A stretch of 63,837 nt of DNA, counting the filler, from Raillietiella orientalis (lineage: Eukaryota), in the NCBI GenBank assembly GCA_036172245.1. It is 4 parts of 4 records of this genome, joined end to end, with 100 filler letters (N's around TTAATTAATTAA, not from the genome) between each part and the next. Parts side by side here need not be neighbours in the genome. Positions count along the whole stretch, not along the records: positions 1 to 18,000 come from JAYWIR010000242.1; 3 more parts are not named here. The stretch is one strand, 5' to 3'. Under the pieces are notes generated by a model that saw only the letters and a list, made by a program, of their open reading frames with translations, had not been told where the DNA came from and did no database searches. A program made the translations under genes and the position numbers. Position 1 is the first letter of the stretch. Every line of letters starts with the position of its first letter. Below are positions 1 through 47,779 of the stretch, one piece after another.

Positions 1-749
1 CTTAAGATCAGCGGCAGCAATATTGCCCGTGAGCAAGGTTGACATTTGAAATTTCTGTTTGGTGCTGATTCAACTGGTTGAATGTTTGTGTAGTTGGTTT
101 GGTGGTATTTCTGTATTCTTGAATTCGTGTTTGCTTTTCAGAATCTGCTGTGTTGATTTGTTTTGGTTCATTTTTTTGGTTTGGTACATATGGTATTCTT
201 TTTGTGTGTTATTTTGTTATTGTGATTGTAAAAAATCTTTTTTATCGACATTTGGGATTCTTTCGTTTGCTTGCCCTCTATTGGCGGTTTTTTCAACTTT
301 TGTTATTTCATTCTTCCAAGTATGAGAGTGTGTTAATGTTATTTGTATTTTTTTTTAGTTGTTTTTGAATTTTCAATTCTAAGTTTTTGATTTCTATTTT
401 ATTCCTGTTTTAGTGTGAGCGTTCTATTGTCTTTCCTTGTTTTTTTTTTTCTTTTGCGTTTACTAGATGGCGTTTTCTTCTCTTTGATCGTTTAATGGTT
501 TTTTTTTCCTCGACTGTTGTTCCGAAAGCAGTTGGTGGTGATGTTAATTTAGGTATTTGGTTTCTTTTGTGTTTGTTTTTTGTTTATGTTTCTGTCTTGG
601 AAAATTTCGCAATGGACGTTCAAGGTTTGTTTTCTCTTTATCGAGTATTCTTCTCATGCTTTTCCTTATTGGTCGTTTAGGCACCCATTGGAGCATGGAT
701 TGCGTAAATTCTCGCTTTGAGCTCGTTGGTGATATCCCTCCGTTGGAGC

Positions 750-1650
750 TTCAGTACTTTTTCCTCGCCTGGTATGTCGTGTGATTACTTTTTGCGGTGA
801 TTGATCTGTGCGACTTTCGAAGGTATGTTTGTTGTTTATCCATTTCGAGGATAACAGAAGTAGGATTTCTAAGGTTGACGATGTTTGCAGGTATATTCCA
901 AGAACGAAAATCAAGTCGTTGCCTTTCCGTTAAGGACGACTGGCTTGAGAACTGTGTACACAGCTTCCAGGAGGTGTCATTTTGGAACACAACCCTTCGT
1001 TCGACGCGAAGATCAATCTGGCTTCGAATTTCTGTGTCCACGTTTGCAGGAGTGCAGGATGCGGTCCGAGCGGTGCTCCCAGCGCGAGACTGCGACTCGC
1101 ATCGTTCTCGAAGTTTCTCACGACCTCTTCGGAGAGGCGTGTACATGCGGTATGGATCACTCGTACGCACGGTTGAACTCGCGCGGAAACCACACACTTG
1201 TAAGGCAGACATCCTATTCGAAATTCGGCAGCAGATACTTGGCGTTCCTGAAGACGTAGACTTCTCTAAAGAGTGTTCGGCACTTTGCAAGACGTATCCA
1301 CGAAGTGATGTTGTTGAAGTGGTCGGACAAAAGGGGTGTACTGTACCTCAGTACAGTACGTGGCAATCTTACTCTGCTGTGCTATGTGTGTGATGCTATT
1401 CTTGATTGGAGGATTGATGGCGTTACTGAATAGCTGTAATGCAGCTCTCGATATTTGTTGCTGTTATGCCAAGGAAGCTTCAGTCTTTTCTTGTATTTCC
1501 CCATTGGCTTTTTGGACACTGTCGACCTTTCCCGGATGTTCTTGGCCACATCTTTTATGATGTACCGCTAGGTTTTTAAGGGGCGCCCCTCTGCTTGAGA
1601 ACGTAATCACGCGTCCTCGCGATGCAGTTAAAGTCTTTACAGCTTTGCAG
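750..1650 (-). mobile_element. Highly degraded LTR-retrotransposon (Ty3/gypsy-like) integrase remnant
   Basis: Minus-strand fragments in changing frames follow integrase order: HHKRCGQEHPG (H2C2 zinc-binding HxxxxHPG-like), LGAPLGPHP..QKFEA (GxPxxIxSDxGxxF-like), SSQSSLTERQ (PQSNGxxER-like). Many stops and frameshifts. Boundaries approximate. Confidence 0.4.
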
Positions 1651-2360
1651 TCTCCGCAGCTCACTTGGCTATTTCTTCCCCTTGTCTGGTACATCATTGA
1701 CCTTTTGCATCAATGCGCTGCTTCTGCTCCTTTTGGTTTCTTATCCTGACTTGCCTATTAACGTTGTATGCTCGGCTACCTTTCGCTGGTCCCAAGTCTT
1801 CCTGTCTTTTACAAAGTGTTTTTCAAGGCTCATGTTTTGCATTTGCTGTCTTCTGTCGAATCCATCTGCTTATTGGTTTTTTCAGCAAGGTGCCTTTCTG
1901 CTACAGAATTTTCTTGTTGTCCTGTTGGTCCAATTGTGGCACTGGGGTTTGAAGACGGCAGTGAAAACGAAACGTCGCTTCTCAGAGACATGCATGCGTC
2001 GTAAAAGAGTGAGCTGTAAAACGAGTCTATCGGAAGGCAACAGGCGATAAAAGAGGTGACCGACATTTCCAGCGACTGACCACTTCGCTCCTGGAAGCAT
2101 TCAGAAAGTAAAAGAAGGCCATGTGCAAGCGTACGAGGTGCTCTTTTGGTGCAGTCGCGAATTGGAGGACGCGCGCCATCGTTCAAAAAAAGAGGAGCCA
2201 AGTCTTGTAAGACGGAAACGCTGGGAATGGAAATCACGTTGTCCAGATAGCACAATGCGGCCCACCTATCTGGCAGTCGAACGCGTTTTTTGTGAGCTCC
2301 CGCGAGCGAAACAAAAACCGGTTTTCTTGAGTTTCGAAACGCGACAGTTGGAAGTCAGGG

Positions 2361-3985
2361 ATGCCTGAAGTCGCAGCAGCACCTGCGACGGAAGGCGTGA
2401 GACTAAGGTCCCCCCAACCTATAGAGGTGGTGACATGCCCCACTAGAAAATCAGCCCCCGCAACCCTGGCTAGGGCTTCGAATAAAGTGGCCGCGACGGC
2501 TCTGCTAGACGTGGCTGCAGAAGTGCAAGGCTACATCAAAGAAGGCTACAACAGAGCCCTGCTGTACAAGTTAGGGAATTTATACTCACCGCTAACTAAG
2601 CAGAAATTTAGGAACGCCATCCGTAGCATGGGCATTACAGCGAAGGAGATACTGTGCTTCTCGATCCGGAGCGGAGGGCAGTTCGCGGAGCTGATCTGCA
2701 GAGATGCAGCGCTCACGCACAAACTGCTCTGCACGCCCGTTTCCTTGGAAGGGCGGAATCTCCTCCCACACACGGTGGATCACTCGATAGTGATTCACCT
2801 TACAGGAACAACGGTGCGGATGAGCGTTGAAGCCATCCGCACTGAAATTAACAAGTTCGCTGAGATTTACGCGATGTGGAAGAAGCCCAACGCCTTCACA
2901 TATAGAGGCGCATTTAGTAAGCGACTAGCCGCTCGCGTAACTCTCCGCGAAAACATTGAAATTCCCCACAAGCTGGAGATTAACGACGAGCTCGTTGATC
3001 TCTGGTACGTAGGGAAACAAAAATACTGCGGGCTGTGAAACACGTTTGGTCATCTCAAAAAGAGATGCCTGAACGCCACATGCCCAACGTGCGGTAATAA
3101 GGGCCACACAAGAATTATGTGCCCGAAAAACGCCGCTACAACGCTTAAAACCCCTATTTTAAACGAGGGAAGAAGGCAGAAAAACAAACAATCAGCGACC
3201 AACAGCCAAACTCAGAAGAAGCCGAACAAAAGGAACAGGAGACTCAAAAGAAGACTTCTGAACCAACCGTCGGCAAGGAAGGCTGGAAATTAGTCGCCAA
3301 CAAGAAAACAAAAAATTAAAATTTCAAGAATGAGAAACCTAAAAAATCTACAAATCAGAACGCGAGCAAATCGAAAAAAACCGCGAACGGCGCAAAAAAA
3401 ATTACGCCGCGCAAAATAATAAAGGAATGCCGCGTTAACATCGAGCGCGTTCCGTCGATCGAACGTCGATCGGCAAACGCGACTCCCGCAACCGTCGCGA
3501 ACGCCTCGGAACCGCCAAAGGAAAACTGCGACAAAGACGCGAGCAGCAGCGATGACAAAAGTTTTGAGAAGGCGACGGAGGAACTCGCGGCCACCTGAAT
3601 GCAGCCGCCTAAGCTTGCAAAGAAGGCTGTGAGACGCCCGGCGGAAGCCAAAGGACCGGAAACTTCCGATTCCGAGGCGCAAGCCGGAAACGCTCCCACC
3701 GTCGCCCTCCCGAAGAGGAAGGCGGGCCGGAAGTCCCGCAACCCTATGCGCGTCGCTGCCCCTCAGGCTCAGGAGGAGGAAATGCCCTCGGGTAGCGAGG
3801 AGGCGATGTCCGCGAGGTCGCGGGATCCTTCCGTGGAAACCGCCCGGTCCGATCTTCCGATCGACCTCAGTCCGGCTGCCGACGTTCCAGTCGTTTCGGA
3901 AACGCCGTCCATGCAGGTGGACATCGACCAGCCGCCTCCCGAACAGGAGGCGGCTACACAATCGCCACCACCATCATTAGCATGA
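2361..3985 (+). pseudogene. ORF1 (gag-like, CCHC zinc knuckles) of Tx1/L1-like element family A
   Basis: ORF 2361-3038 is homologous to ORF1 of family X (YIKEGYNRALLYK vs YVAQGYRPALRYK; LEINDELVDLWY vs LQVNDTVIHLWH). It is followed by disrupted CxxCxxxGHxxxxC knuckles at ~3027-3122 and a low-complexity tail. Its stop overlaps the ORF2 start (ATGA, 3982-3985). Confidence 0.8.
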
Positions 3986-4452
3986 TGCGTGCAATCGCCT
4001 CTTGCCGGCAGCTGCGTATAGCCTGTTGGAATGTCAACGGGCTGCGTAGCGAAAGCAAGAGGCGTAGCGTGGCCGACACCCTGCGACCTTTCGACCTGGC
4101 AGTTTTTCAAGAGGTTCACGCCCTCAGGGAAGAGGACGTCCAGGAGATCGAGAGGCTCACAGGGGAAAGGCTACTTAAACGATCCGCTGGAGACCACTCC
4201 CGCGGAGTGGCCTTCCTGCTGAAGCCAGCCGTCGCAAAGGCAGTGCGCAGTGTACAGTTCGCCAAGGAAGGTCGAGTTGGGCAAGCTGTTCTCAAGTGGT
4301 CCGACTCGATCGACCACGTGGTCACGAACTTATACGCGCCCTGCAGCAGCCACAGGCGCGGAGAACGCACTGCGTTCTTTGAAGCCCTGAGGCGAGACTC
4401 GTTGGCCAAAGCAGGCGTGCGGCGGCCGCACCTGATAGCGGGAGACTTCAAT
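3982..4452 (+). pseudogene. ORF2 N-terminal APE endonuclease of family A, cut off exactly after the GDFN codons by element X1
   Basis: LRIACWNVNGL, FQEVH, NLYAP and LIAGDFN APE motifs. GGA GAC TTC AAT occupies 4441-4452, then the sequence switches to the X 5' end (CGAGTGCAGACGTG). Confidence 0.9.
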
Positions 4453-4531
4453 CGAGTGCAGACGTGTTATTCTTCGCTCTCTTCTCCGTGATTTCATCCG
4501 CTTCATCTTGGTGTCGTGCATTTTGACGACG

Positions 4532-6491
4532 ATGTCGACCAATCCCGAAGCTACTGAAGTTGGAGGTATAGCGTCCGGATCTGCAATCGCGGAACCGACG
4601 GCCTCCTCCTCTTCATCTGCCTCGCCAATGGAGAGGAGTCTTGCTGACGTTGCTGCCACAGCAGCCGTCAAAGGGGGACCACTCGACGAGAAGGAGCTGC
4701 AAGCATACGTAGCTCAAGGCTATAGACCTGCTCTCCGATATAAGGTGAGTGGTTTTCTTTCTGCGCGCGACAGGAAACAGTTCAACGATGAACTGATCCG
4801 TGTTGGCGTGCGGGAGGAGGACCTCCTCGCTATTATGCCCGTAAAAGATATGGGCTATTACAAGGTGCGTTGCAAAGACGCTGCACTTGTGCAAAGCTTG
4901 CTGCGCACCCCGTTGTCGATCCGTGGCCAGAACGTCTTCCCGTCTAATATGGATGAGTCGTTCATGGCGGAGCTTTACGGCATCGAACCGGAAACTTCCG
5001 ACCGCGAATTGGGGACTGTCGTAGCAAAATTTTCCACGGACCATGCTCTGTGGAATGCTTGAAGCACCCTTAAGGACTTCCCATCCATCGTCAGCGGTAG
5101 TGCCGCGGTTCGACAAACCATGTCGGACAGCCGGCTTCTACCCTCTAAGCTGCAGGTGAACGACACGGTCATTCACCTGTGGCATGCTGGCAAGCCTCGA
5201 CTATGCGAGGGATGCGGCGAAGAAGGGCACTATCCACAAAAGTGCCCTTCTGGTAAATGCCGCTATTGCAAGGAATCCGGGCACAACTTCGAGCATTGCC
5301 CGGATCTTGCTAGAAAAAAGGCAGCCGCAAAGCATCAACGCTCGCAATACGTCGCGAAAACGAAAAACGCGGCAGACGAAAAACAGTGCGCACGGGTTAA
5401 GTCTCGTTCCGATGAGAAGCGAAATGCCGGACAACAGCAGGGGTCCTCAACGTTGTAGCCCCTCGCGTCCAACTTAGCGGCAGGAAAGCTGCAAAAAAAA
5501 TAACGCGGAAGATCAAAGGACGACTCCAGAGCTCGTGTCAACGATCGTGCAACTGCGGTTTCAACCCAGGGCCAAACAAAGGCCAAGGGAAAAGAACCCC
5601 TGAACGGCGATCGCGGTCAAGTGGAAAATGAACATTCCACGACATTGCCCCCTTCAAAGCCGAAGAAGCCCAATGGCCAAAAAAAAAAAGGAGGCCTTCG
5701 TTCCGAATTCGGAAACCGGAAAAAATAATCGCGCGCCTTGCGGCAGCACCACGCCAGCGGAGAACCGCTCTCCATGCACACCAACGGTGAGCAAGCTCCC
5801 GACTGACAGGGATGCCACCCCGACGGAGACGACAACGCCAGTCACGCATGCAGCGCCTCTGCCGGGCGAGGAGCTAACCTCAGGAGTTCTCCCGACGCAA
5901 CAGATTGCCTTCCAATACGGCGAGAACGACTGGACGGTTGTGGAGAGAAGCGGTATGAAAAAAGCTTCAAAAAACGCTCTACAGCATCCGTCGAAAGCGC
6001 TCCTGAAGGCAAGGAACTCTCGAGTGATGAAAATGACTCGCGCAAATGTTCCTCGTGCAATATCGCGGTCTGATGCTGACATCGCGCGAGTTGTAAAAAC
6101 AGCCACCGAAAAAAGCGATGCCACATTACCAAAGAGCGCAAAAACGATCGCGGTCCAACGAAAAGACAGCCGTTGCTCTTCGCGTACCGCGAAAAGCGAG
6201 TCACGCGAACGCCATACAGACTCCGCATCGGAGAACGACCCGGTTTCCGAACGTCGAGTAACTCTTTCGGAAACGGAGTCGCGTCGCGTAAAAGCCGGCA
6301 GGCAGGAGAATACCGCCGCGGAGCAGCTTGAGTTCGTCGTAAAATCCGAGAAGAAGACACATGGGGTGGGCACCTCAACTGCATGCAGTACGACGGTGGA
6401 CGGTGGCGACCGTCCCCTTCAGCCGGTCGTGCTGCTCGCAGTCCGCTCGCCGGATAAAGCGTGCGAAAAGCCGCCGCCTTCCCAGCAGTAA
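4532..6491 (+). pseudogene. X1 ORF1, nucleic-acid-binding protein with two CCHC knuckles
   Basis: CEGCGEEGHYPQKC and CRYCKESGHNFEHC; long basic/Ser-Thr-rich tail; interrupted by stops and frameshifts. Ends in a TAATG overlap with ORF2. Confidence 0.85.
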
Positions 6492-9400
6492 TGCGGGGAA
6501 TAGCATCTTCTCGGCGTCTGTCCGTCGCGTGTTGGAACGTGAACGCACTGCAGAACGACGAGAAGAGGCGGTTAGTTGTTAACGCCTTGCGTCCCTTCGA
6601 CCTCGTGCTCTTGCAGGAAATTCACGTGATCTTTGAAGACCAGGCAGCCGAAATCGAGGAGCGCGCAGGCGGAACGCTACATTGGCGGTTTGGCGATGCC
6701 CACACGTGCGGCATCGCGTTGCTCGTAATAGAAAAAATTACGGAAGCAGTGCGGGGTGTTCGTTTCGACGACGAAGGACGGGTAGGCCAACGTGTCATCA
6801 AATGGTCCGAGTCCATCGATCTTGTCGTTACGGACGTCTACGCGCCCAATGGTTCTCGCTACCTCGAAAAAAGAGTAGCTTTCTTTGGTGAGGTACAGAG
6901 CTACTGGCTCAACGACTTAGGCCACCAAGTGGCGCACCTCGTCGCGGGGGACTTCAATGTCCACCTGCTCCCCGACGATTGGAGCCGCCTCAGAAAGCGC
7001 GCGCTGCCCATCGAGATGTGCGCGTCGGTGCACGCCGCAAACATCATGGTCAGCGAACCTGAAATGGAAAGATCGCTCGATCATGTTTTCCTCGATGAAA
7101 ACCTGCATTCGCGTGAGGGTAGGAGAGGAAGATTGTTGACTGGGCTTTCTGATCATCACAGGTTGGAGTTTGAGCTTCTTCCGCCAGGCAAGGGGCCTCC
7201 GTTGCAAAACTGGAGGATGTAGGCGGATTGGCTTAGCCATCCGGAGGCTGCAGGGCATCTCTGTGAACACCGTCGAGGCTTCGCCATTCAAGAACTCGCG
7301 GACTGCGACCATCTCAAAAGATCTGTTCGCGAGTTCTGCTGCCAATTCCCCTTGCCCTAGCTTCCACGCGGTTTCGGAAAAGGCGTGGACAACAGCACAC
7401 ACTTTCTGCAGGCTTGCAAGTTTTCCAGACGCGCGGATGTCAGGCGTCTCGTGGAGTACAAGAAGAGGGCCGAGCCCCAGGTCTGGCAGTCCGGAGCAGC
7501 ATGCCTGTTGGAAGAAAAGTGCCAGGAATGCTCGGCCCCAGCCGAAGTACACCGCATTGTAGAACGCTACTACTCCTTGCTGTACGCGGAAACCCCGACG
7601 GAGGATATTCTCTCTGAGATACTCTTGTCGCAGGATGCTCGTGTCGTCGGCGAGCAGGAACGCGAACATCTCAACGAGCCCTTCACGGCGGATGAATTCT
7701 CGTCCTCCATTGCTGGGCTGAAGAGACGAAAGGCGCCAGGCGAGGATGGACTCCCTGCAGAGTTTTCTCATTGCTTTGCAGTATAGCTCATCCCTTTGAG
7801 GCTGAGACTCGCGTCGCTGATGAGGGAATCCAAGAACGTCCCGGATTCCTTCCGCTCAGCGTAGGTGCGTCTCCTACCGAAAAACGGAGACTCGCGCCAA
7901 CTTAACAACTGGCGTCCGTTCACCTTGGTGAACTCGGACGTCAAGTTGTTTTCCAAGCTGCGGGTCGCGCGATTAGGAAGTATCGCGGAATCTGTGGTGA
8001 GCCCGGAACAAACCTACGCCGTTCCCGGACGATCCATGGAGGCGAACATCCTTTTCGCGCGTACCTGGATGCAGATGCAGGAAGTCGTGGCGCGGCAAAG
8101 CCTGGCTGAGGCGAAAGTCGCAGCCGCATGCAAGAAGAACAGGCGCCGAAGGCAGAAGGGCACGCCATGTGCCTTGGCGGTCGCAGTCGACCTCCGCAAG
8201 GCCTTCGAGTGCGTAAACCAGGGGCTCCTCTTGGAGCTTCTGGAACGCCTTGGATTTCCGGCGCATCTCCTTCTTTATTTGCACGCTTGCTGGCGTCACG
8301 CGCTAACCTGTATTTCTTTCAGCAACTGCCGCGTGTGCGGTATTCCCGTGCGCAGAGGCATTCGGCAAGGTGATAGCTTCAGCCCGTTGCTCTTCAGCAT
8401 CTTGTTTGAGTTGGTGCTTAGAGCATACAGAATGACGCTGTCTCACTTGCCAAGCTCCTGCCCGAAAACGCCTGCCGTGGCCGCCTACGCTGATGACCTG
8501 CTTCTTCTGCTCCCCATGTCAACCCGGCATCCAGTGTCGAGGATTTCTTCGACCTGATGCGTCGGGGAGCGGGCGTGAGCGTGAACAGAGAGAAGAGCGT
8601 GGTCGTTCCTGTGGGTACGTCGTGGGAGGGGCAGTCCGACTGGATCCGCCTGGGGATCCCCACGGACGGGTACTTTGAGTACCATTGCGTTTTGTGGCGC
8701 GATCTCGGCGCAGCCGAAGGGTGGTCGGACTGCCTTCAGAAAGCAGAGTTGGTTGTCAGCCCGTTCATCAACGGCAAGTTTACCTCGCAGGAACGGGCGA
8801 CTCTTTGGAACACCTTTGTGGCCCCCCTCCTCCGTCCCCTGTTTTATGTTTTGGACCCCCCCTCTGCGGCAAAACAGCGGGCTGAACGCGTGCTTAGAAA
8901 CGCTTTCTGGGGTCCGGGGAGACCCAGGATCCGCCTTGAAGACTTGGGTGCTCCACGTCAGGATTTTGGTTTCGGTATCCTGTCAATGGAGCGAATCGGA
9001 CTGCAGGTGCAGTTCCGACTGCTGGCACTGTGTGCCCAGCTGTGTACATCTCCCCTGTGTTTGCCTGCGCGCATTCTCCTGCGAAGATGCGCCGGCAGCG
9101 GAGTACTGCTCTCGCTTTTGCCGGGCACGCAATACAGGAAGCGAGGTTTTGGGCTTCCATAGCGGCAGTTGAACGCACTTCTGGAAGCCCATTCGTGGAT
9201 CTCCTGCCGCCCAATGAACTTCGAAGCTTGGCGGCAGGAGTCTGTTAAATCCTGGGCAGCGTTCCAACGAATGCGCCCTGGAGATCTTCGCCCCCTGCGC
9301 CATCTTCTTTCCCGATCTTTGGAAGAAGTTCTGCAGGACGAGGTGAAGTTTTCTACCCTGGATGCCACGCCTCTCGCCGCAGCGCTGTCTGCCTTCTAGG

Positions 9401-10082
9401 CAAGAAACGACAGTTGCGAACCGGCATGGTGGGAGGTTTCCTGCACGATAGCGGGGAAAACAAAACTTCTTGGCGCCTAAAAGACGAGTGATTTGGCGGA
9501 CGTTGCCACTCCTCGTTGTACTTCAAAGGGACTCCTCCGGTGGGCAGAAGAACTTGCTGTCACCCGCGAAGAACGTCTAGTGCCTCCACAGTGCGTTGAC
9601 AGTTCGTTGCTTTCCCTTGCTTGGAAACAAGCCGTGTTGCTTTTCGTTCACTGGGGTTTTCAGTGCAACGAGCGTTGGCATCGAGACTCCGGGGACTTGC
9701 ATCTGCCAACTGCGTACGGTGGGGGTCGACGGAGTCGATCCCGCACCTACTTCTGGACTGTGGTGTCCCACAAGCTCTGTAGCGTAGGCTGGCAACAGCA
9801 CTAATGCATCCCGTGGACACCGCAAAAGACTTGCTGCGACGATTCTTTACGCCGATCGGGCTGTCCCTAAGCGCAAGGATTGCAAACATCGGTTGCATAC
9901 GCGCGATAGTTACCGTCCGCCATGCGTTGGTAATGAATGGGCAGCACCAAAAGTTAATAGGCAAAGCATCCTTTTACATGGAAGCAACCGCTAGATGACC
10001 TCATTTGACAGAGGAGTCAAAAAGAAATCTCGCCGAAATACACCGCCGGTTTACACAAGCTCAGCAGCGGCCAACCCGGTGA
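6491..10082 (+). pseudogene. X1 ORF2: APE endonuclease - reverse transcriptase - C-terminal Cys/His domain
   Basis: VACWNVNAL, LQEIH, YAP, AGDFN, LDHVF, SDH (APE); KAPGEDG, NWRPFTLVNSDVK, DLRKAF, GIRQGDSFSPLLF, AYADD (RT); HWG plus a Cys-rich C-terminus. Multiple in-frame stops. Confidence 0.92.
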
Positions 10083-10404
10083 TCATTACCCTACCCTCCA
10101 TGAACTGATTTGGTATTTTCTTTTCACACCGGCATCCCCATAGGCTCCGCAACATTTCAGGTGTCCCCCGTTTAAATCCCCGTGAGTACGAAGCCTAACC
10201 AAAGACCCGTTACCCTTCCCCCCAGTTTTTGAATTTTGTTTGTTATCCCCTTATTCTTCCTACGTTGCGAGCGGTTTGTTTTCCAGGTTTGCGTGCCGGC
10301 TTTCTCTCTATGTTTGCTGTCCTTCTGTTGGTTCAGGACATTGTCTCTGACGAGTTTATTATTATTATTAAACGCCCCGGCGTGACCGGGTGATAAACAT
10401 GAAT

Positions 10405-13400
10405 CGAGTGCGGACGTGTTTTTCCCCGTTCTCGTCTCCAGGCTTTCAACCGCTTTATCCTGGTGTCGTGCATTTTGACGACGATGTCGACCCAACCCGA
10501 AGCTACCAAAGTTGGAGCAACAGCATCCGGATCTCGAATTGCGGAACCAACGGCCGTCTCCACTTCGTCTTGCTCGCCAATGGCGAGAAGTTTTGCTGAC
10601 GTTGCTGCCGTGGCAGCCGTCAAAGGGGTACCTCCCAACGAAGCAAAGGTGCAGGCCTACGTAGCTCAGGGCTACAATCCCGCACTTCGCTACCAGGTCA
10701 TTGGATTTATTTCTGTTCGCGACGGTAATCAGTTCAACGATGAACTGAACCTTGTTAGCGTGCGGGAGGAAGACCTTCTGGCCATTATGCCCATCAAATG
10801 CTTGGAATATTTCAAAGTGCTCTGCAAAGAGGCGGCTATTGTGCAACGCTTGCTGCGCACTCCTTTGTTTATCCGTGGTAAGAAGGTCTTCCCGTCTACC
10901 ATGGATGAGTCGTTCGTGGCGGAGCTTCACGGCATCGAACCGGAAACTTCCGACCGCAAATTGCGGACTGTATTAGCAGAATTCGCCACGGTCCATGCTC
11001 TATAGAAGGTTGGAAGCACCCTTGAAGACTCCCCATCCATCGTCAGCGGTAGTGCCGCGGTTCGGCTACTCATGCCGCACCGCAGGCTTCTACCCTCTAA
11101 GCTGCAGGTGAACGACACGGTCGTTGACCTGTGGCATGCAGGCAACCCTCGAGTATGCGGAGGATGCGGCGAAGAAAGGCATAATCCACAAAAGTGCCCT
11201 CCTAGTAAATGCCGTTTTTGCAAGCACTCCGGGCACAACTTGAAGAATTGCCCGGACCTTGCTAGAAAAAGGCAGCCGCAAAGCATCAACGCGCAAAATA
11301 CGTAGCGAAAAAGCCAAACGCGACAGAAAAAACACAGTGCACACGGGCTAAGTCTCGTTCCGATGAGAAGCGAAATGCCGGACAACAGCAGGGGTCCTCA
11401 AAGTTGAAGCCCCTCGCGTCCCACTTAGCGACAGGGAAGCTGCAAAAGAAATGGCGCGGGAGATCAAAGGACGACTCTTGAGCTCGTGTCAACCATCGCG
11501 GAAACGCGGTGTCCACCCAGGGCCAAACGAAGGCCATGGGAAAAGAACCGCTAAACGGCGATCGCTGTCAAGTGGAAAATAAACATTCAACGACCATGCC
11601 CCCTTTATGGCCGAAGAAGCTCAATGACCAAAAAAGGAAGGAGGCCTTACTTCCGGTTTTGGAAACCGGAGAAAATAATCGCGCGCCTTGTGGCAGCACC
11701 ACGCCAGCGGAGAACCGCTCTGAGTGCGCACGATCGGAGAGCAAGCTCCCGACTGACAGGGATGCAACCCCGACGGAGACGTTAACGCCGGTCGCGCCCG
11801 CAGAGCCGCTGACAGCCGAGCAGTTAACCTCAGGGGTTCTAGCGACGCAACAGGAGATCGCCTTTGAATACGGCGAGAGCGAGTGGACGGTTGTGGAGAG
11901 GAGCGGTAAGAAAAAAGCTCCAAAAAACGCTCCACAGCATTCGTCGAAAGCGCTCCTGAAGGCGAGGAACTCTCGAGTGATGAAAAAGACTCGCGCGAAT
12001 GTTCCTTGTGCAATATCGCGGTCTGATGCTGACATCGCGCGAGCTGTAAAAACAGCCTCCGAAAAAAGCGATGCCAGATTACCAAAGAGCGCAAAGACGA
12101 ACACTGTCCAACAAAAAGACAGCCGTTGTTCTTCGCGTGCCGAGAAGAGCCAGTCACGCGAACGCCATACAGACTCTGCATCGGAGAGCGACCCGATTTT
12201 CGAACGTCGTATAACTCGTTCGGAAACAAAGACGCGTGGCGTAAAAGCCGGCAGGCAAGAGATTCCCGCCGCGAAGCAGCTTGAGTTCCTCCCAATATCC
12301 AAGAAGGACACACAAGGGGTGGGCACCTCAACTGCATGCAGCACGACGGAGGACGGTGGCGACCTCTTCTCCAGCCGGTCGTGCTGCTCGCCGTCCGCTC
12401 GCCGGATAAAGCGAGCAAAAAGCCGATGCCTTCCCAGCAGTAATGCGGGGAATCGCGTCTTGTCGTCGTCTGTCCGTCGCGTGCTGGAACATGAATGGAC
12501 TGCAGAACGACGGGGAGAGACGATTAGTAGCCAACGCCCTGCTTCTCTTCCACCTCGTGTTTCTGCAGGAGATTCACGTAATCTCCCACGAGCAGGCTGC
12601 GGAAGTATAAGATCACGTAGGCGGAACGCTACATTGGCGGTGCGGCGACGCCCATACGTGCAACGTCGCGTTCCTCGTAAGAGGAAAAATTACAGAAGCG
12701 GTGCGTGGTGTTCGTCTCGACGACAAAGAAAGGGTAGGCCAACTTGTCATCAGGTGGTCCGAGTCCATCGATATTGTCGTTACCAATAACTACGCACCCA
12801 ATGGCTCTCGCTACCTTGAAAGAAAAGTACCTTTCTTTGGTGAGGTGCAGAGCCACTGGCTAAAAAAACTCCGGCCACCAAATAGCACACCTCGTTGTAG
12901 AGGACTTCAACGTCCGCGTGCTCTCCGACGATTGGAGCCGCCGCAGAGAGCGCGCGCTGCCCATCGAGATGTGCGCGTCGGTGCACGCCGCAAACTTGAT
13001 GGTCAGCGAACCTGGAATGGAAAGTTCGCTCGATCACGTTTTCCTCGATGAAAACCTGCATTCGCGTGTGGGCAGGAGAAAAAGGTTGTTGACTGGGCTT
13101 TTTGGCCACGACTGGTTGTCGTAAGTGCTCCTTCAGTTAAATAAGGGGCCTATGTTGCAAAACTGGAGGATGCAGACGGATTGGCTTAGCCACCCGGAGG
13201 CTGCGGAGCATCTCCGTGAACACCTACGAGGCTTCGCCATTCAAGAACTTGCAAACTAGGACGATCTCAAAAGATCTGTTCGCGAGTTCTGCTGCCGATT
13301 CCCCTTGCATTGCCTTCCACGCGGTTTCGGAGAAGACGTGGCCAACAGCAGACACTTTCTGCATGCTCGCACGTTTTCCAGACGCGCGGATGTTGGATGT

Positions 13401-14159
13401 CTTGCGGAGTACAAGGCGAGGGTTGAGCGTGAGGTTTGGCAGTCCGGAGCAGCATGCCTGTTGGACGAAAAGGGCCATAAATGCTCGACCCCAGCCGAAG
13501 TACGCCGGATTCTAAGACGCTACTACTTTTCGCTGTACGCGGAATCCCCGACGCAGGACATTCTCTCTGAGATACTCTTGTCGCAGGATGCTCCTGTCGT
13601 CGGCGAGAAGGAACGCGACCGTCTCAACGAGCCCTTTACGGCGGATGAATTCTCGTCCGCCATTGCTAAGCTGAAGAGACAAAAGGCGCTATGCAAGGAT
13701 GAACTGTTTGCAGAGTTTTACCAGTGCTTTGCAGTGGAGCTCACCTTCTTGATGCTGAGACTTACGACGCTGATGAGGGAATCCGGGATCGTCATGGATT
13801 CCTTCCGTTCAGCGAAGGTCCGTCTCCTGCCAAGAGGCAAAGACTGGCGTCAACTTAACTAGCGTGCGATCACCTTGGTGAACTCGTACGTCAAGTTGTT
13901 TTCCAAGCTGTGAGTAGAGCGGCTGAGAAGTATCGCAGAATTTGTGGTGAGTTCGGAACAAACCTTCGCGGTTCCCGGACGATCCATGGAGGCGAACATC
14001 CTTTTCGCGCGTAACTGCATGCAGCTGCAGCAAGTGGTTGCGCATTAAAGCCTTGCTGAAGCGAAAGTCGAGCCGCAAGCAAGAAGAACAGGCAGCGGAG
14101 GCAGCAGGGAACGTCAGGTGCTATAGCGGCTGCAGTCTTCCTTCACAAGGCGTTCGATT
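10405..14159 (+). mobile_element. Family X copy 2 (tandem with X1), interrupted in the RT domain by antisense element B
   Basis: Colinear with X1 from the 5' end (CGAGTGCGGACGTG) through ORF1, APE and RT up to ...CACAAGGCGTTCGAT (HKAFD). More disrupted than X1. Confidence 0.92.
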
Positions 14160-14160
14160 T

Positions 14161-17100
14161 TTACCCGGATTTCCTCGGAGCGTTTATTGAAACAATAAAC
14201 TTTAACAAAGACGTGCAGTTGCAGGGACATTGCTCAAGCCACGCACAAAGAAGCACAGAACCTTCTGGGTCACCGGTTTGCTTACCGGTACGGTCCACCA
14301 CGGCAGCAGGGGTTAGGGCGAAAAACAAAAAAACAAACAAAAAAGAAAAGAAAAGGTGAGGGGGAACAGGAAGGGATCACTGTAGCTGGTTGGGTCGTTT
14401 CATCCTTAGCAGGATGCAGGCGAGCTCTTTTTGTATCCCTGCATCCAGATGTGGCCATCTTGATGCACTCCTCAGTAACTGGGAGGCTGGGTGGATGGCA
14501 CTCTGGTCGCGTTTTCCTCCTGTAGCCTTGCTCCAGGCGGTGACGATCCCGCGCAGGCAGCACAAAGCTGCTAACAAGGCCGCAGGCCGAAGGGCTTCGG
14601 CAACGAAGAGAGCTTTCAGAGCGTCCCTGGGGTTGCCGCAGAGGATTCCGATGGCCACGGAAAAGCGGAACCTAAGGGGCCGAAGGGCAACGCAATCGAC
14701 AAGGAGGTGGGGGAGGGAATCCCGTTCCCCACACCTGAAGCAATTGGGGTCCAACGCTTTCCTGGTCCAGTGGTGTCGTTGGGCGTTGCAAGGGAGTCCC
14801 CAGTGCTGCAACAGGAGAGCCAATTCCTTTTATTTTAAGGGAAGCGTGGGAGTGTTTATTAGCACCGGGGGCCACTTCAAACGTTCAATGGGAACGTCGA
14901 GCATCGCGCTTTAGCGTAGAAGTCCATGAGTAGGCGTACTCGGGGTGGCAGCTTCAGTCAACTGACCCGTCTTCCACTCTTCTATCTTCTTCTCCTTCCC
15001 CGATATTGTTACTGTCACCTCTTACCTCGCCGCAAGATCGCTGTCCAGATCTTCCATCAGGGAGGGCAGTGCAGCAGCGAGATGGCTTCTTCCTGCCCAC
15101 GCTCTCTTCTTTGGATCCTTCAGGATCGAGCGGAGCGTGCAACTTCTGTAACCCCCATACAGCAACCTTCGTTTCTGTTGAGAGCGTTGCATGCCGAACT
15201 GTTCCCACGTTCGAACGGTTACCTGCAACCAGGCACTGTCGTTCAAAGGGCGACAGGTGACCAATCCTGGATTTTTAAGGTACAGCGCAGCCACCCTCCG
15301 TAGCTGGAGTCCACATCGGTTAACGCGGCGACGAAGTGCAAGAAACGACGTCAGTCCCGTCATGCTGGTGGCTTACTGGAGAAGGACACGTGCAGGCACG
15401 CACCAACAGGTGCATCACAACTCTGGAACAAGTGCGGATATTCGGAACTGGAGCTGAGGCTCCAACCGCTCCAGCGTCAGGAGGCCCAGACCACCGCCCC
15501 GACGAGGAGCGCACAAGTACGTTAAGCGGACTCGGGCCCTCCCGTTGCCCCAAATGTCTATAGGAGGAGCTTCTTTGTCCGCTTTTTAATTCTCTCTGTG
15601 AAGGGGCAAACAAAAAGCAGGAAGCGGAGTAGAGGAGCCGCGAACATGTTCCAAACCGCGGCCCGTTCCGGCAAGTGAAAGTTGCCTTCCAGGAACGGGC
15701 CGATCGCCGTCTAAACTTTTTCAAGGCTGCTGGACCACGCTTCCGCAGGGAAGTAGTCCCCCAACAGCACACCATGGTACTTGAGGCACCTCGCCGTTGG
15801 GATCCCCATACGGATCCAGTACTGCTGCCCTGCCCACGCCTCACCTACTGGCAACACTGACGGCTTCGCCCTGTTGACCTGCAGTCCCGTCCCACGGCTA
15901 AGCAGATCAAAGAATTCTCCGACCGCCTTCGCCGGGGTGTACATAGGTAACAGGAGCAGAAGGTCGTCGGCATAGGCTGCTACGGTGGGCGTGCCGGGGT
16001 ACGAGCTCGGCAAGGGGGCGAATGTCATCCTGTACGATCTCAGCACTAACACAAAATAGGTTCTGAAAAGCAGAGAAATCAGGCTATCATCCTGCCTTAT
16101 GTCGTGTCGCACCGGCAAGCCATACACCGTCTGACTGCTGAAGAAGATGCAGACAATCGCTTTCCGCCAGCAAGTGCGCAGGTAGGTGATGAAGGAGGTT
16201 GAGAAGCCCATGCGATCCTGTCGCACCAACAAAAGCTCCTGGTCAACACAGTCGAACGCCGTATGGAGATCGACTGCGAGCGCTAGGGCCCCTTTCCCGC
16301 CCGAAAGTCCATTCCCTGCCCTGCTGGCGGCCTTAAAGTGAAGTTGCCGATTTTTCCTTTCCTTTTCTTCTGCGTGTGCATCCATGTGCTCGCGAAGAAG
16401 AGGTTGGCATCCATACTTCGCCCGGAAACAGCATATGCCTGCTCCGGGCTAATTATGGATTCTGATACCTGTCCCAGACGCGAAGCCGATCGCCCGGCAA
16501 CCAGCTTGGCGTCCGTATTCACAATTGTGATCGGACGTCAGTTGTTCAAATTTCTAAGGTCTCCCCCTTTCAGAAGGGGCCTCACTCTGGCTGAACGAAA
16601 CGATGCGGGAACATCACTTTGGTCAGGGATCATCCTTGTCAGCAGAAGCAGCAGGGGTGCCAGCTCTTCCGGGAAGCTCTGATAGAACTCCGCAGGCAAG
16701 CCATCTTTCCCTAAAGGTTTCCGCCTCTTCAGCCTTCTGATACCGGCGAGAATTTCGCCTGTGGTAAAAGGCTCATCGAGGCTTAACGACTCCTCCTCCC
16801 CTATTGCCGCAGCACCATCCGTAGACAAGAGCCGGGAGGCATCTTGATCCGGGGCGCCCTGGCGTAAAGGGAGGAATAAAAACCCCGCACAAGATGCCGT
16901 ACCGACGCCGGGGACGAACATTCCTGGCTCTGGTCGTCCAGCAAGCTGGCTGACCCGGATTGCCAGGCTTGGCGTTCGGTTCCGGCGCGGTACTCGGCCA
17001 GGAGACGGACATTAGGGGTTATTTCGTACCTACGGGCCTGTAAATAGGCCCGATGTTTGCGCTCGCCGAAACCGGGGAGCAGGCGGTCCAAGGGGAACTG

Positions 17101-17486
17101 CTTGCAGAACCTTTGGACCGAGGCTTTAAAAAGATCCCAATCCAAAAGACTTTGGAGCGTGACGCCTCTCAGGAATTCGCGAAGGTGTTTCTTTGCACCT
17201 AAGAGTCGCGTCCAGTAACCCGGCAGACGCCACTCCCTGGTTGGCGGTCCCTTGTCACGAGGCCGCATCTCGAAAATTAACCTAGAATGGTCCGACAACG
17301 TCGACGCAACCCTCCCCCGTTTGCCGACCCGTGAACACAGGCCAGCATCGAGGAAGACGTGGTCGATGCTGCGGACCATTCCCCTCTCACCCACGAACAA
17401 GTTGCGCGCACGCTTGGCGGCGCACAACTCGTTCATCGTGTTCACATGTGTTTCCGGCTCACCTGTTAGCAGGCGGAGATTGAAAT
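14161..17486 (-). mobile_element. Tx1/L1-like element family B, ORF2 from the (G)DFN motif to the 3' end
   Basis: Minus-strand FNLRLL...SIDHVF...SDH, KPLGKDG, DLHTAFD, IRQDDSL, AYADD, HWGL...CFRCGERDSLPHLLVDC. The 3' end is AATAAACGCTCCGAGGAAATCCGGGTAA. The 5' side stops at ATTTCAAT (17486-17479), abutting the X3 3' end. Confidence 0.9.
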
Positions 17487-18000
17487 TTATCACCCGGTCA
17501 CGCCGGGGCGTTTATTAATAATGATAAACTCGTCAGGGACAATGTCCCCAACCAACAGAACTACAGGGAACATAGTGAAATTACCGGCACGCAGGCGTGG
17601 TGAACAAACCGCTTTCAGCGTGGGAGGAATGAGGGGAAACAAACAAAAATCAAAAACTGGAGGGATGGGTAACGGGTTTTTGGTTAGCCTCCGTACTCAC
17701 GGGGATTTAAACGGGGAGCACCTGAATGTTCCAGAGCCTATGGGGACGCGGCTGTAAAAGGAAAATACAAAATTAGTTCATTTAGGGTAGGGCAATGACC
17801 ACCGGGTTGGCCCCTGCTGAGCGTGTGTAAACCGGCGGTGTATTGCGGCGAGATTCCTTTTTGTCTCCTCTGTCGAATGAGGCCATCTAGCAAATGCTCC
17901 CATGTAGAAGGATGCTTTGCTGATTACCTCTTGGTGCTGTCCGTTGATTACCAACGCATGGTGGACGGAAACTATCGCGCGTATGCAACCGATGCTGTTC
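17487..18000 (-). mobile_element. Family X copy 3, 3' end (rest lost at the contig end)
   Basis: The reverse complement aligns with X1 ~9885-10396 (e.g. CATCGGTTGCATACGCGCGATAGTT, TTTAAATCCCCGTGAGTACG, CGCCCCGGCGTGACCGGGTGATAA). Confidence 0.93.
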
Positions 18001-18100
18001 NNNNNNNNNNNNNNNNNNNNNNNNNNNNNNNNNNNNNNNNNNNNTTAATTAATTAANNNNNNNNNNNNNNNNNNNNNNNNNNNNNNNNNNNNNNNNNNNN
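18001..18100. other. Artificial contig spacer (N run with TTAATTAATTAA linker)
   Basis: Exactly 100 nt: 44 N + TTAATTAATTAA + 44 N, identical to the two other spacers. Confidence 0.98.
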
Positions 18101-19800: not shown

Positions 19801-20336
19801 GCATGACACGCACGCAGCGCACGGGAGTTCCAAGCACCAGGGCAACAGCAACCGAATCCTCTTTTCCATGCAGCATCAGCATAAAATTAGGAAGAGCTTA
19901 GTGTGTCCTCTTCCTCCTTTCCTCCTCCCCTCCTATTTTTCCTTCCTCTTCCTCTTCCTTTCCTACCTTCCTTCTCCTACACACTCCTCTTCCCACACTT
20001 TCTTGTTTGCCTTCCACGCGGCCGACGGCAACCTCCGACTGGAAAGGGGAAAGCGTTACGGGAAGACGAAGGTGGAAGGAAGAAAGAGCGCACTTTTGGA
20101 AAGGACGTGGGTTGCCCTCGCCATTTCGTCACAGCAGCCGGACTCTGGAGACGTTGTCCTTCCTCCCGCAGTGTAAGGATTCTCCACCGCCAACTAGGGG
20201 CGAGGGAACTTTTGGTCCCTTGGCACGCCTCCCTCTATCTCCGCGACCGTCTTTCGGAAACCGGCAAGAAGGGACTTCCTCCGGAGGACTCGACCACTCG
20301 TGCGACACTTCACGCGCTAAGGAGCAGGAGACGAGG

Positions 20337-23300
20337 GGCGGGAAAACACCGCATTGGAAATAGAAAAAAGAGAGGAATTTTTTTGATGCACTTTGAAGAT
20401 TCTATTTGGATGCAGGAAGTGAAAATAGATTGCTTCCAACCATTCTGATGTCTCAGGATTGCGACCGAAATCATCGGGAACCGGCCATGGTCGTTTACGT
20501 GCAAGTGCGGAGATTTGGCGGGAAAACACTGCATTGAAAATAGAAAAGAGAGAGGAGTGTTTTTGATGCACTTTGAAGATTCTATCTGGATGCAGGAAGT
20601 GAAAGTAGATTGATTCCAACCATTCTGATGTGTCAGGATTGCGACCGAAATCATCGGGAACCGCCCATGGTCGTTTACGTGCAAGTGCGGAGATTTGGCG
20701 GGAAAACACCGCATTGGAAATAGAAAAGAGAGAGGAATTTTTTTGATGCACTTTGAAGATTCTATTTGGATGCAGGAAGTGCAAGTTGATTGATTCCAAC
20801 CATTCTGATGTCTCAGGATTGCGACCGAAATCATCTGTAACCGCCTATGGTCGTTTACGTGCAAGTGCGGAGATTTGGCGGGAAAACACCGCATTGGAAA
20901 TAGAAAAGAGAGAGGAGTTTTTTGATGCACTTTGAAGATTCTATCTGGATGCAGGAAGTGAAAGTAGATTGCTTCCAACCATTCTGATGTCTCAGGATTG
21001 CCACCGAAATCATCGGGAACCGGCTATGGTCGTTTACGTGCAAGTGCGGAGATTTGGCGGGAGAACACCGCATTGGAAATAGAAAAGAGAAAGGAATTTT
21101 TTTGATGCACTTTGAAAATTCTATTTGGATGCAGGAAGTGGAAATAGATTGCTTCCAACCATTCTGATGTCTCAGGATTGCGACCGAAATCATCGGGAAC
21201 CGCCCATGGTCGTTTACGTGAAAGTGCGGAGATTTGGCGGGAAAACACATCATTGGAAATAGAAAAAAGACAGGAATTTTTTTGATGCACTTTGAAGATT
21301 CTATTTGGATGCAGGAAGTGAAAATAGATTGCTTCCAACCATTCTGATGTCTCAGGATTGCGACCGAAATAATCGGGAACCGGCCATGGTCGTTTACGTG
21401 CAAGTGCGGAGATTTGGCGGGAAAACACCGCATTGAAAATAGAAAAGAGAGAGGAGTTTTTTTGATGCACTTTGAAGATTCTATCTGGATGCAGGAAGTG
21501 AAAGTAGATTGATTCCAACCATTCTGATGTGTCAGGATTGCGAACGAAATCATCGGGAACCGCCCATGGTCGTTTACGTGCAAGTGCGGAGATTTGGCGG
21601 GAAAACACCGCATTGGAAATAGAAAAGAGAGAGGAATTTTTTGATGCACTTTGAAGATTCTATTTGGATGCAGGAAGTGCAAGTTGATTGATTCCAACCA
21701 TTCTGATGTCTCAGGATTGCGACCGAAATCATCTGTATTCGCCTATGGTCGTTTACGTGCAAGTGCGGAGATTTGGCGGGAAAACACCGCATTGGAAATA
21801 GAAAAGAGAGAGGAGTCTTTTTGATGCACTTTGAAGATTCTATCTGGATGCAGGAAGTGAAAGTAGATTGCTTCCAACCATTCTGATGTCTCAGGATTGC
21901 CACCGAATTCATCGGGAACCGGCTATGGTCGTTCACGTGCAAGTGCGGAGATTTGGCGGGAAAACACCGCATTGGAAATAGAAAAGAGAGAGGAATTTTT
22001 TTGATGCACTTTGAAGATTCTATTTGGATGCAGGAAGTGGAAATAGATTGCTTCCAACCATTCTGATGTCTCAGGATTGCGACCGAAATCATCGGGAACC
22101 GCCCATGGTCGTTTACGTGAAAGTGCGGAGATTTGGCGGGAAAACACATCATTGGAAATAGAAAACAGAGAGGAGTTTTTTTGATGCACTTTGAAGATTC
22201 TATTTCAATGCAGGAAGTGAAAGTAGATTGCTTCCAACCATTCTGATGTCTCAGGATTGCCACCGAAATCATCGGGAACCGGCCATGGTCGTTTACGTGC
22301 AAGTGCGGAGATTTGGCGGGAGAACACCGCATTGGAAATAGAAAAGAGCTAGGAATTTTTTTGATGCACTCTGAAGATTCTATTTGGATGCAGGAAGTAA
22401 AAGTAGATTGCTTACAACCATTCTGATGTCTCAGGATTGCGACCGAAATAATCGGGAACCGGCCATGGTCGTTTACGTGCAAGTGCGGAGATTTAAAGGG
22501 AAAACACCGCATTGGAAATAGAAAAGAGCGAGGAATTTTTTTGATGCACTCTGAAGATTCTATTTGGATGCAGGAAGTGAGAATAGATTGCTTCCAACCA
22601 TTCTGATGTCTCACGATTGCGACCGAAATCATCGGGAACCGCCCATGGTCATTTAAGTGCAAGTGCGGAGTTTTGGCGGGAAAACACCGCATTGGAAATA
22701 GAAAAGAGAGAGGAGTTTTTTGATGCACTTTGAAGATTCTATTTGGATGCAGGAAGTGAAAATAGATTGCTTCCAACCATTCTGATGTCTCAGGATTGCG
22801 ACCGAAATCATCGGGAACCGGCCATGGTCGTTTACGTGCAAGTGCGGAGATTTGGCGGGAAAACACCGCATTGGAAATAGAAAAGAGAGAGGAATTTTTT
22901 TGATGCACTTTGAAGTTTCTATCTGGATGCAGGAAGTGAAAGTAGATTGCTTACAACCATTCTGATGTCTCAGGATTGCGACCGAAATAATCGGGAACCG
23001 GCCATGGTCGTTTACGTGCAAGTGCGGAGATTTGGCGGGAAAACACCGCATTGGAAATAGAAAAGAGAGAGGAATTTTTTTGATGCACTTTGAAGATTCT
23101 ATTTGGATGCAGGAAGTGGAAATAGATTGCTTCCAACCATTCTGATGTCTCACGATTGCGACCGAAATCATCGGGAACCGCCCATGGTCATTTAAGTGCA
23201 AGTGCGGAGTTTTGGCGGGAAAACACCGCATTGAAAATAGAAAAGAGAGAGGAGTGTTTTTGATGCACTTTGAAGATTCTATCTGGATGCAGGAAGTGAA

Positions 23301-35300: not shown

Positions 35301-35988
35301 TTTTTGATGCACTTCGAAGATGCTATTTGGATGCAGGAAGTGAAAATAGATTGTTGCGAACCATTTTAATCTCTCAGGATTGCGACCGAAATAATCGGGA
35401 ACCGGCCATGGTCGTTTACGTGCATGTGCGGAGATTTGGCGGGAAAACACCGCATTGGAAATAGAAAAGTGAGAGGAATTTTCTTGATGCACTTTGAAGA
35501 TTCTATCTGGATGCAGGAAGTGAAAGTAGATTGCTTCCAACCATTCTGATGTCTCACGATTGCGACCGAAATCATCGGGAACCGCCCATGGTCATTTAAG
35601 TGCAAGTGCGGAGTTTTGGCGGGAAAACACCGCATTGGAAATAGAAAAAAGAGAGGAATTTTTTTGATGCACTTTGAAGATTCTATTTGGATGCAGGAAG
35701 TGAAAATAGATTGCTTCCAACCATTCTGATGTCTCAGGATTGCGACCGAAATCATCGGGAACCGGCCATGGTCGTTTACGTGCAAGTGCGGAGATTTGGC
35801 GGGAAAACACTGCATTGAAAATAGAAAAGAGAGAGGAGTGTTTTTGATGCACTTTGAAGATTCTATCTGGATGCAGGAAGTGAAAGTTGATTGATTCCAA
35901 CCATTCTGATGTGTCAGGATTGCGACCGAAATCATCGGGAACCGCCCATGGTCGTTTACGTGCAAGTGCGGAGATTTGGCGGGAAACC
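20337..35988. repeat. Tandem satellite array, ~180-bp monomer, about 87 copies, running off the contig end
   Basis: Consensus GGCGGGAAAACACCGCATTGGAAATAGAAAAGAGAGAGGAATTTTTTTGATGCACTTTGAAGATTCTATTTGGATGCAGGAAGTGAAAATAGATTGCTTCCAACCATTCTGATGTCTCAGGATTGCGACCGAAATCATCGGGAACCGGCCATGGTCGTTTACGTGCAAGTGCGGAGATTT, repeated head-to-tail with a few substitutions per copy and no unique spacers. Confidence 0.99.
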
Positions 35989-36088
35989 NNNNNNNNNNNN
36001 NNNNNNNNNNNNNNNNNNNNNNNNNNNNNNNNTTAATTAATTAANNNNNNNNNNNNNNNNNNNNNNNNNNNNNNNNNNNNNNNNNNNN
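35989..36088. other. Artificial contig spacer
   Basis: 100-nt N run with TTAATTAATTAA linker. Confidence 0.98.
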
Positions 36089-44220: not shown

Positions 44221-44270
44221 AGGAGGGAGCGTAGTAATGATGAGAATTCGTAGTTAGTATGACGGGATAG

Positions 44271-44324
44271 CAAGAATGAGTTTATGAGAATATGAATTGT
44301 GGGTATCAAAGGATTCTTTCTTGA
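44271..44324 (+). tRNA. trnP: NUMT tRNA-Pro-like pseudogene (T-arm reduced)
   Basis: CAAGAA...TTCTTG acceptor stem, AGTTT...AGAAT D-arm, degenerate TGG anticodon loop. Confidence 0.45.
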
Positions 44325-44339
44325 TGGTCAGTTTGAGGT

Positions 44340-44395: not shown

Positions 44396-44400
44396 TGGAT

Positions 44401-45895: not shown

Positions 45896-45904
45896 ATTAT
45901 GTGT

Positions 45905-45960: not shown

Positions 45961-45978
45961 GACTAAGGTCGTAGTAGA

Positions 45979-47778: not shown

Positions 47779-47779
47779 G

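Follow-up and report, generated by a model that had tools for sequence, protein, structure and literature searches.

Can a retrotransposon take, as its site of insertion, the codons of a catalytic motif in the endonuclease of another retrotransposon? The question is raised by a locus of Raillietiella orientalis (GenBank assembly GCA_036172245.1), where a retrotransposon of the non-LTR type (LTR, long terminal repeat), here termed X, adjoins the G-D-F-N codons of two host elements, termed A and B. The DNA analysed, called the window, is 63,837 bases in length and consists of four pieces (18000, 17888, 17748 and 9901 bases) that were artificially joined; the linkers, N44-TTAATTAATTAA-N44, are at 18001-18100, 35989-36088 and 53837-53936, and adjacency across them is meaningless. 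All evidence on the junctions of X comes from piece 1 (positions 1-18000), a single 18-kb contig. An earlier note on this DNA placed three junctions of X here, and all three are confirmed. On balance, the sequences at these junctions make it probable that X is a site-specific long interspersed nuclear element (LINE) of the L1/Tx1 type that takes as its target the G-D-F-N codons in the endonuclease of A/B.

Anatomy of X and its junctions with host elements

X is an apurinic/apyrimidinic endonuclease (APE)-type LINE with precisely defined termini, and BLAST with copy X1 as query finds three copies in the window. X1 (4453-10396, plus strand) is a full-length and decayed copy of 5944 bp, as defined by BLAST, translation and Pfam. 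It has a 5′ untranslated region (UTR) of ∼80 nt, a first open reading frame (ORF1) that begins with the ATG at 4533, a K/E/S-rich spacer, and ORF2, which is laid out as endonuclease (6488-7222), reverse transcriptase (RT, ∼7600-8900) and a C-terminal region. Pfam finds Exo_endo_phos at 6458-7219 (E 9.1e-12, profile positions 3-225 of 225) and, downstream of this, RVT_1 at 7865-8554 (E 2.9e-18). A CCHC spacing is visible in the translation of ORF1, where the zf-CCHC_2 match (E 1.4e-4, 22 bits) is under the cut-off of 27. The 3′ UTR ends ..AAACGCCCCGGCGTGACCGGGTGATAA, with GGGTGATAA after a small GC hairpin. Several frameshifts and stops break the frame of X1, and X2 is decayed likewise.

X2 (10405-14157, plus strand) covers X positions 1-3756 and is 85.0% identical to X1 by BLAST, with 553 mismatches and 11 gap columns over 3749 aligned bases (14.8% divergence). 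The amino acid identity of the two copies, 72-76%, is near the calculated neutral expectation of ∼70%. X3 lies on the minus strand at 17994-17487 (feature 17487-18000), where it is cut off at 18000 by the end of piece 1; it covers X positions 5435-5944 and is 86.5% identical to X1 by BLAST. The X1-X3 divergence is 13.2%, yet the final 27 nt are identical. Both visible 5′ ends of X (X1 and X2) begin with CGAGTGC and both visible 3′ ends (X1 and X3) read ..GACCGGGTGATAA. Thus, the junctions are precise and constant at the 5′ and 3′ sides alike. A CpG-decay clock for ordering the insertions was dropped, as the observed/expected ratio of CpG is ∼1 in all elements.

Host A (2331-4444, plus strand) is a LINE of which ORF1, a K/E/S-rich spacer and, in ORF2, the N-terminal half of the APE endonuclease are present. 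Its ORF1 is an open frame at 2331-3038, its 5′ end is at or before ∼2361, and its endonuclease sequence runs from 3982 to 4452, up to ..IAGDFN. The Pfam match to Exo_endo_phos (E 2.8e-9) includes profile positions 3-155 of 225 only. Host B (14158-17478, minus strand) supplies ORF2 from just past F-N, namely the C-part of the endonuclease, RT and a C-terminal CCHC region, followed by a 3′ UTR with the terminus ..AAACGCTCCGAGGAAATCCGGGTAAAAA at 14158; B lies antisense within X2. The RT of B matches RVT_1 with E 8e-6 and 26.1 bits, under the cut-off of 29.6. By tblastn, A is 29% identical to X1 in ORF1 and 48% in the endonuclease, and B is 48-52% identical to X1 at the amino acid level. A and B are therefore LINEs of sister families of X, at ∼48-52% amino acid identity in ORF2 and with the same type of 3′ end. 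The earlier note had regarded the hosts as competitor LINEs; unrelated competitors they are not.

At the junction of A and X1, positions 4435-4452 are ATAGCGGGAGACTTCAAT, in frame with the N-half of the A endonuclease and reading ..HLIAGDFN. The last eight bases, ACTTCAAT (4445-4452, plus strand), belong to the D-F-N codons and stand directly 5′ of X1. The junction is thus ..ATAGCGGGAG ACTTCAAT | CGAGTGC, in which GGAG precedes the 8-mer and X1 starts at 4453. At the X3-B junction (minus strand), the sequence of X3 runs to ..GACCGGGTGATAA at 17487, with the terminus GGGTGATAA. This is followed directly by the 8-mer ATTTCAAT (17486-17479), which reads (N)FN in the frame of B, and then by CTCCGCCTG. 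The frame after X3 reads F-N-L-R-L and is open for 228 codons, down to 16801.

The two host junctions fall at homologous codons. By tblastn, the A endonuclease half aligns with the X1 endonuclease (6488-6958, 48% amino acid identity) and stops exactly at the X1 GDFN, and B aligns colinearly from just past the X1 FN (X1 nt 7013-7597, 48% amino acid identity). X is co-oriented with its host, in sense, at both. Thus, the frames and tblastn bear out the earlier claim that X lies in the same orientation at the same codon position in two host endonuclease genes, and the Pfam matches agree with its description of X as an APE/RT LINE.

The third junction is between X1 and X2, where ..GACCGGGTGATAA ends at 10396 and the 8-mer ACATGAAT (10397-10404, plus strand) precedes the CGAGTGC of X2 at 10405. 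As had been noted earlier, the 8-mer that parts the tandem copies is target-like, with a 6/8 match to ACTTCAAT. In the window, X is therefore at the target in both host-flanked junctions and in the one tandem junction. For the 8-mers that precede X1 and follow X3 to agree at 7/8 positions or more, the probability is by arithmetic ∼25/65536. Chance can be dismissed, and the real alternative is that the junctions are not independent.

Two further elements in piece 3 bear on the question of whether the 8-mer belongs to the element itself. D (∼47861-46332, minus strand, ending ..CCCGGGTGAAAA) and E (52276-51755, minus strand, ending ..GACCGGGTGAGAAA) are 3′ fragments of relatives of X and B. Their tail architecture is conserved and consists of an AT-rich hairpin, a GC hairpin and GGGTGA(n)AA, which is a tail of the X type. 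The 3′ flanks differ, however: that of D begins CCATACCACAAAG.. and that of E CTCCCACGGGTGC.., and these are not endonuclease sequences. AYTTCAAT is accordingly not a general tail of the clade. Folds of the 3′ hairpins of X, B, D and E give z-scores of -0.6 to -1.6, which are not significant and are descriptive only.

Flanking bases and a proposed mechanism of insertion

The G-D-F-N codons of X itself, and of two LINEs of another family, C, are not interrupted. In X1 they are at 6947-6958 on the plus strand, where GGGGACTTCAAT is followed by GTCCACC; GGGG stands before the 8-mer and GTCC after it. The X2 site has GAGG before and GTCC after, and both C-family sites, in piece 4, have GGGG before and ATCC after. 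All four are empty. Occupancy of GDFN sites in the window is thus 2/2 in A/B vs 0/4 in X1, X2, C1 and C2, a contrast that is post hoc and based on tiny numbers. In the empty sites the 8-mer is unchanged or almost unchanged, and GGAG and/or CTCC beside it are lacking. These sites differ from the occupied ones at the synonymous base of the Gly codon and at the next codon.

The pattern suggests that a few bases beside the 8-mer may decide whether a site is hit, and the flank differences suggest how X could spare itself. Similarly, a host family could perhaps escape through a synonymous substitution in the Gly codon or a conservative one in the codon that follows. Doubt thus falls on the earlier view of a target that mutation could not readily remove, as 0/4 sites with the same or near-same 8-mer are occupied. 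If correct, dependence on flanking bases would be a simple account both of self-avoidance by X and of escape by the host family.

A mechanism can be proposed. The APE endonuclease of X would nick the bottom strand at the boundary of GGAG with AYTTCAAT; from the freed 3′ OH, reverse transcription would start on an X RNA that ends in the conserved hairpin plus GGGTGATAA. A nick of the top strand between AAT and CTCC would result in an 8-bp duplication. X would in this way land in sense and split the host endonuclease gene. An 8-bp duplication had been put forward in the earlier note, and the geometry of the junctions fits it, with GGAG^A... for the bottom-strand nick and ...AAT^CTCC for that of the top strand. 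When the left side, from A, and the right side, from B, are combined, the site reads GGAG-N8-CTCC and displays dyad symmetry (top strand ..AAT^CTCCGCC, bottom strand ..AGT^CTCCCGC), which is absent from the four empty sites of X and of the unrelated family C. Because of the dyad, both nicks would be 5′ of CTCC on their own strand, and one recognition specificity could make both. From these junctions we infer the specificity of the endonuclease, the positions of the nicks and the grouping of A and B in one family.

The X1-8-mer-X2 tandem may represent a second insertion, into a duplicated copy of the target. Insertion into the upstream copy would leave the bottom-strand site intact, and X1 would then be the younger of the two. 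Alternatively, a read-through RNA carrying the target could have formed the tandem, and this gives the same sequence.

Among solved structures (PDB), all five matches to the X endonuclease at E <= 0.01 are human L1 endonuclease (EN) or L1 EN loop chimeras, the best with an E-value of 1.7e-5. By sequence, the X endonuclease is thus L1-like, and human L1 EN is the closest solved structure. A C-terminal Cys/His motif in ORF2 is a feature of the L1/Tx1 group; the translation of B shows CFRCGERDSLPHLLVDC at this place and that of family C shows CKACGGLDSGRHVLTC, these being candidates read from the translations, and X1 is frameshifted there.

The ORF2 frame of A runs past GDFN into the 5′ UTR of X and stops at 4489-4491, 42 nt before the ATG of X ORF1 at 4533. 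One may speculate that a chimeric transcript, promoted by the host, would allow translation of X by reinitiation. A function of X as a hyperparasite, or in the control of transposable elements, as the earlier note envisaged, is speculation as well.

Nesting of the elements and alternative histories

The order in which the elements are nested follows from the end of B within X2. X2 is interrupted by the 3′ end of B directly after the RT motif codons H-K-A-F-D, and the complete A-tailed 3′ end of B (..CCGGGTAAAAA) directly adjoins internal X2 position 3756. A full 3′ end against the interior of X2 points to target-primed insertion of B into X2 as an event of its own, and not to an inverted 3′ half of A. 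The most economical history is therefore a nest: X into A, B into X2, and X3 into B. Such a nest has two consequences, that X inserted at least twice, in separate events, at one and the same codon position in two copies of the host, and that the X and A/B families shared a period of activity. To judge from the sequence arrangement, the host junctions are thus probably independent of each other. The earlier note had taken the junction at B to be independent; this gains support from the position of the B 3′ end against X2, and is tempered by the probability, small and not negligible, of the first alternative considered here.

This alternative, which is given perhaps a modest minority of the probability, is that one ancestral insertion of X into an A/B-type element took place and that the composite was then copied. 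The junctions would be copies or halves of one event, with no target specificity. The copying may have taken the form of a segmental or an inverted duplication, or of trans-mobilisation of an A/B::X transcript via the B-type 3′ end, with unequal crossing-over as the origin of the X1-X2 tandem. Everything is found in one contig, whose end truncates X3 and leaves the 5′ half of B out of view. The X1-X2 and X1-X3 divergences (14.8% and 13.2%) are alike, as expected of copies of the same age. A and B are complementary halves that do not overlap, and TCGAACGC is common to the flanks 5′ of A and 3′ of B, which may be read as duplication of a single A+B element. On the other hand, an inversion needs its breakpoint to coincide with the end of the B A-tail, and a single-element reading requires X sequence upstream of A. 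By BLAST, tblastn and Smith-Waterman, the upstream flank of A is not X sequence. For this reason, and because the A-tail of B directly abuts X2, a single A+B element with an inversion was rejected as the main reading. In addition, an element with a split endonuclease loses its cis-acting ORF2, and its retrotransposition would need rare trans-mobilisation. Tandems with a target-like spacer, and 5′ ends that are precise and full-length, are what site-specific LINEs usually leave.

It is quite unlikely that insertion was guided by homology, without specificity of the endonuclease. In such a case X RNA or cDNA would pair with sister endonuclease sequence, or a read-through transcript would carry AYTTCAAT. 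The GDFN codon sequence is common to host and X, and the 8-mer suits the tail of a read-through X RNA as well as it does a duplication, the sequence being the same for both. However, the host is joined to the termini of X and not to its internal GDFN region, and the termini have no extended homology to the host flanks. The X GDFN sites should then be the best targets, but 0/2 are occupied. An assembly artefact, in which the B/X2, X3/B or tandem junctions are a chimeric path through the repeat graph and are not in the genome, is very improbable. The assembly is fragmented (pieces of 18.0, 17.9 and 17.7 kb), with a contig break within X3. Mis-joins, however, arise at long shared repeats and not at an 8-mer that connects a coding motif with the precise end of an element; with a divergence of 13-15% from each other, the three X copies are not collapsed copies, and two different types of junction agree on the site.

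Several points weigh against the proposal that X is a LINE aimed at the A/B G-D-F-N codons. The evidence consists of two host-flanked junctions and one tandem junction in one 18-kb contig, and the events may be non-independent. As A and B are halves without overlap, their status as one family and the reconstructed symmetric site are assumptions. The 8-mer in the GDFN codons of X is identical to the target yet unoccupied, and specificity would need a few flanking bases. All X copies are dead, with X1 and X2 ∼15% diverged. The L1/Tx1 label is a putative one, drawn from matches of the endonuclease in the structure database. Searches of other sequence collections add no further copies: the X 3′ 24-mer has no exact match in metagenome contigs, and the endonuclease profile (alignment A3) gave 239 pattern matches in metagenome contigs and 27 in prokaryote genome contigs, of which none was confirmed in either set.

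Protein searches gave few close relatives. Among proteins of 92-296 amino acids, the truncated endonuclease ORF of A (169 amino acids) has no match at E <= 1e-3, and the ORF at the X3/B junction (236 amino acids) has none among proteins of 129-413 amino acids. The X1 RT has four matches among longer proteins, and only P0001 (JGI metagenome, 619 amino acids) is close, at ∼58-63% to both X1 and B. The X1 endonuclease has 191 matches at E <= 1e-3 among representative proteins, of which only P0005, a fragment of 106 amino acids at 66%, is close. Many of the 191 alignments stop near GDFN; this is the last strong motif, and a stop there does not indicate an insertion. None of the 12 cluster members looked up among the database relatives of the endonuclease carries a name, and in the Protein Atlas the X1 endonuclease finds generic Exo_endo_phos clusters only.

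A second possible target is found in the opposite direction, at the sites where A and B were themselves inserted. The 3′ flank of B in X2 (X2 at 14135-14157, B 3′ end at 14158-14185) is TCGAACGCCTTGTGAAGG, with B antisense and right after H-K-A-F-D. The upstream flank of A (2262-2300) holds TCGAACGCGTTTTTTGTGAGC, which includes TCGAACGC and has the antisense reading K-N-A-F-D. The chance of finding the TCGAACGC 8-mer within ∼100-200 bases is ∼0.002-0.003 by arithmetic. Upstream of A, no RT homology beyond TCGAACGC is found, with no Pfam match at E <= 10 and no tblastn match in 1-2300. As an antisense RT fragment, this flank has a Smith-Waterman score of 13, which is within that of shuffles (mean 11.9, maximum 15), and it is a weak lead only. 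The A/B family may have a preferred site of its own in the RT motif-A codons, from two cases compared post hoc. This raises the question of whether the families target each other, X inserting in sense at G-D-F-N and A/B antisense at K-A-F-D, in an arms race within one genome. Such mutual targeting is improbable on present data; if true, each family would land in, and disable, the most constrained coding sequence of the other.

Related systems and other repeats in the window

Target preference is described as common in LINEs of the Tx1 clade, whose targets include U2, U5 and 5S genes, microsatellites and DNA transposons (PMC4494074). Among DNA transposons, the same source lists Tx1D piggyBac, Mariner-N4_AMi (target of the Tx1-Mar families) and Harbinger (target of Tx1-9_AMi), and it reports that Tx1-8_Crp and Tx1-4_AMi target specific LTR retrotransposons (PMC4494074). 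The Tx1L EN of Xenopus laevis is reported to nick almost exclusively at its own target (PMC1950540). Like Tx1L and other members described in this clade, X is an L1-related APE/RT LINE at one defined position in a multicopy mobile element, which would serve as a safe harbour. Unlike the Tx1-clade targets given in these sources, the proposed target of X is the catalytic-motif codons of a LINE endonuclease, and host and guest are sister families. For a LINE to be called site-specific, most of its copies across the genome should lie at one target sequence, and the working threshold of Kojima is that >20% of flanks are at one target (PMC4494074).

R1 and R2 in the 28S rDNA of arthropods resemble X, as here interpreted, in strict site specificity, in sense orientation within a transcribed multicopy unit and in inactivation of the host unit. 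A possible dependence of R1/R2 on host transcription is discussed in the same source (PMC4494074). They differ from X in that their target is rDNA, and R2 has a restriction-like endonuclease and a 5′ ribozyme. At the 5′ end of X, no ribozyme is found by Rfam in 1-18000 at E <= 1, where the sole match is a chance match to a bacterial sRNA. The R1Bm and TRAS1 endonucleases are not among the PDB matches to the X endonuclease at E <= 0.01. In Zepp of Chlorella, LINE copies are nested in LINE copies, and in this Zepp is like the X nest. Unlike X, Zepp is not known to nest at a single conserved codon position or between two families in a reciprocal manner.

That a LINE lives in another transposon is an established kind of arrangement; a target in the coding sequence for a LINE endonuclease would be new. 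A LINE aimed at the endonuclease codons of another LINE is not described in the literature searched, the coverage of which leaves out most subscription journals, Repbase Reports and the supplements of PMC4494074. If the proposal for X is correct, a LINE that lands in the catalytic-motif codons of a sister LINE endonuclease would represent a new class of target. It would also represent a clear case of direct conflict between transposon families, as every insertion would destroy a competitor, with possible use of its promoter by the incoming element. A short, defined target of an L1-type endonuclease would in addition be relevant to engineered site-specific retrotransposon insertion.

Family C, whose sites were compared above, is present at 53937-63837 as two LINEs arranged head-to-tail, C2 (∼63837-58272, minus strand) and C1 (∼58250-53937, minus strand, cut by the piece boundary). 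The two are 75% identical at the DNA level and their GDFN codons are intact, and the RT part of C2 is an intact open frame of 1013 codons. The C2 3′ end, ..CCCCTTGTGGGAcctGGGGAAA, is shared by a third copy in piece 3 (∼42873-41925), which has a different flank. No common target is therefore evident for the C family.

Other repeats are of a different nature. The region 44001-50000 has a GC skew of 0.56-0.58 in 2-kb windows at ∼39% GC, and probably consists of G-rich simple or low-complexity repeats. A satellite array at ∼20200-35988 has a unit of 180 bp in at least 87 copies, mostly 92-98% alike, with a GC skew of ∼0.23. Every sixth or seventh unit of the satellite is more diverged and has a spacing of 179 bp, which suggests a higher-order repeat.

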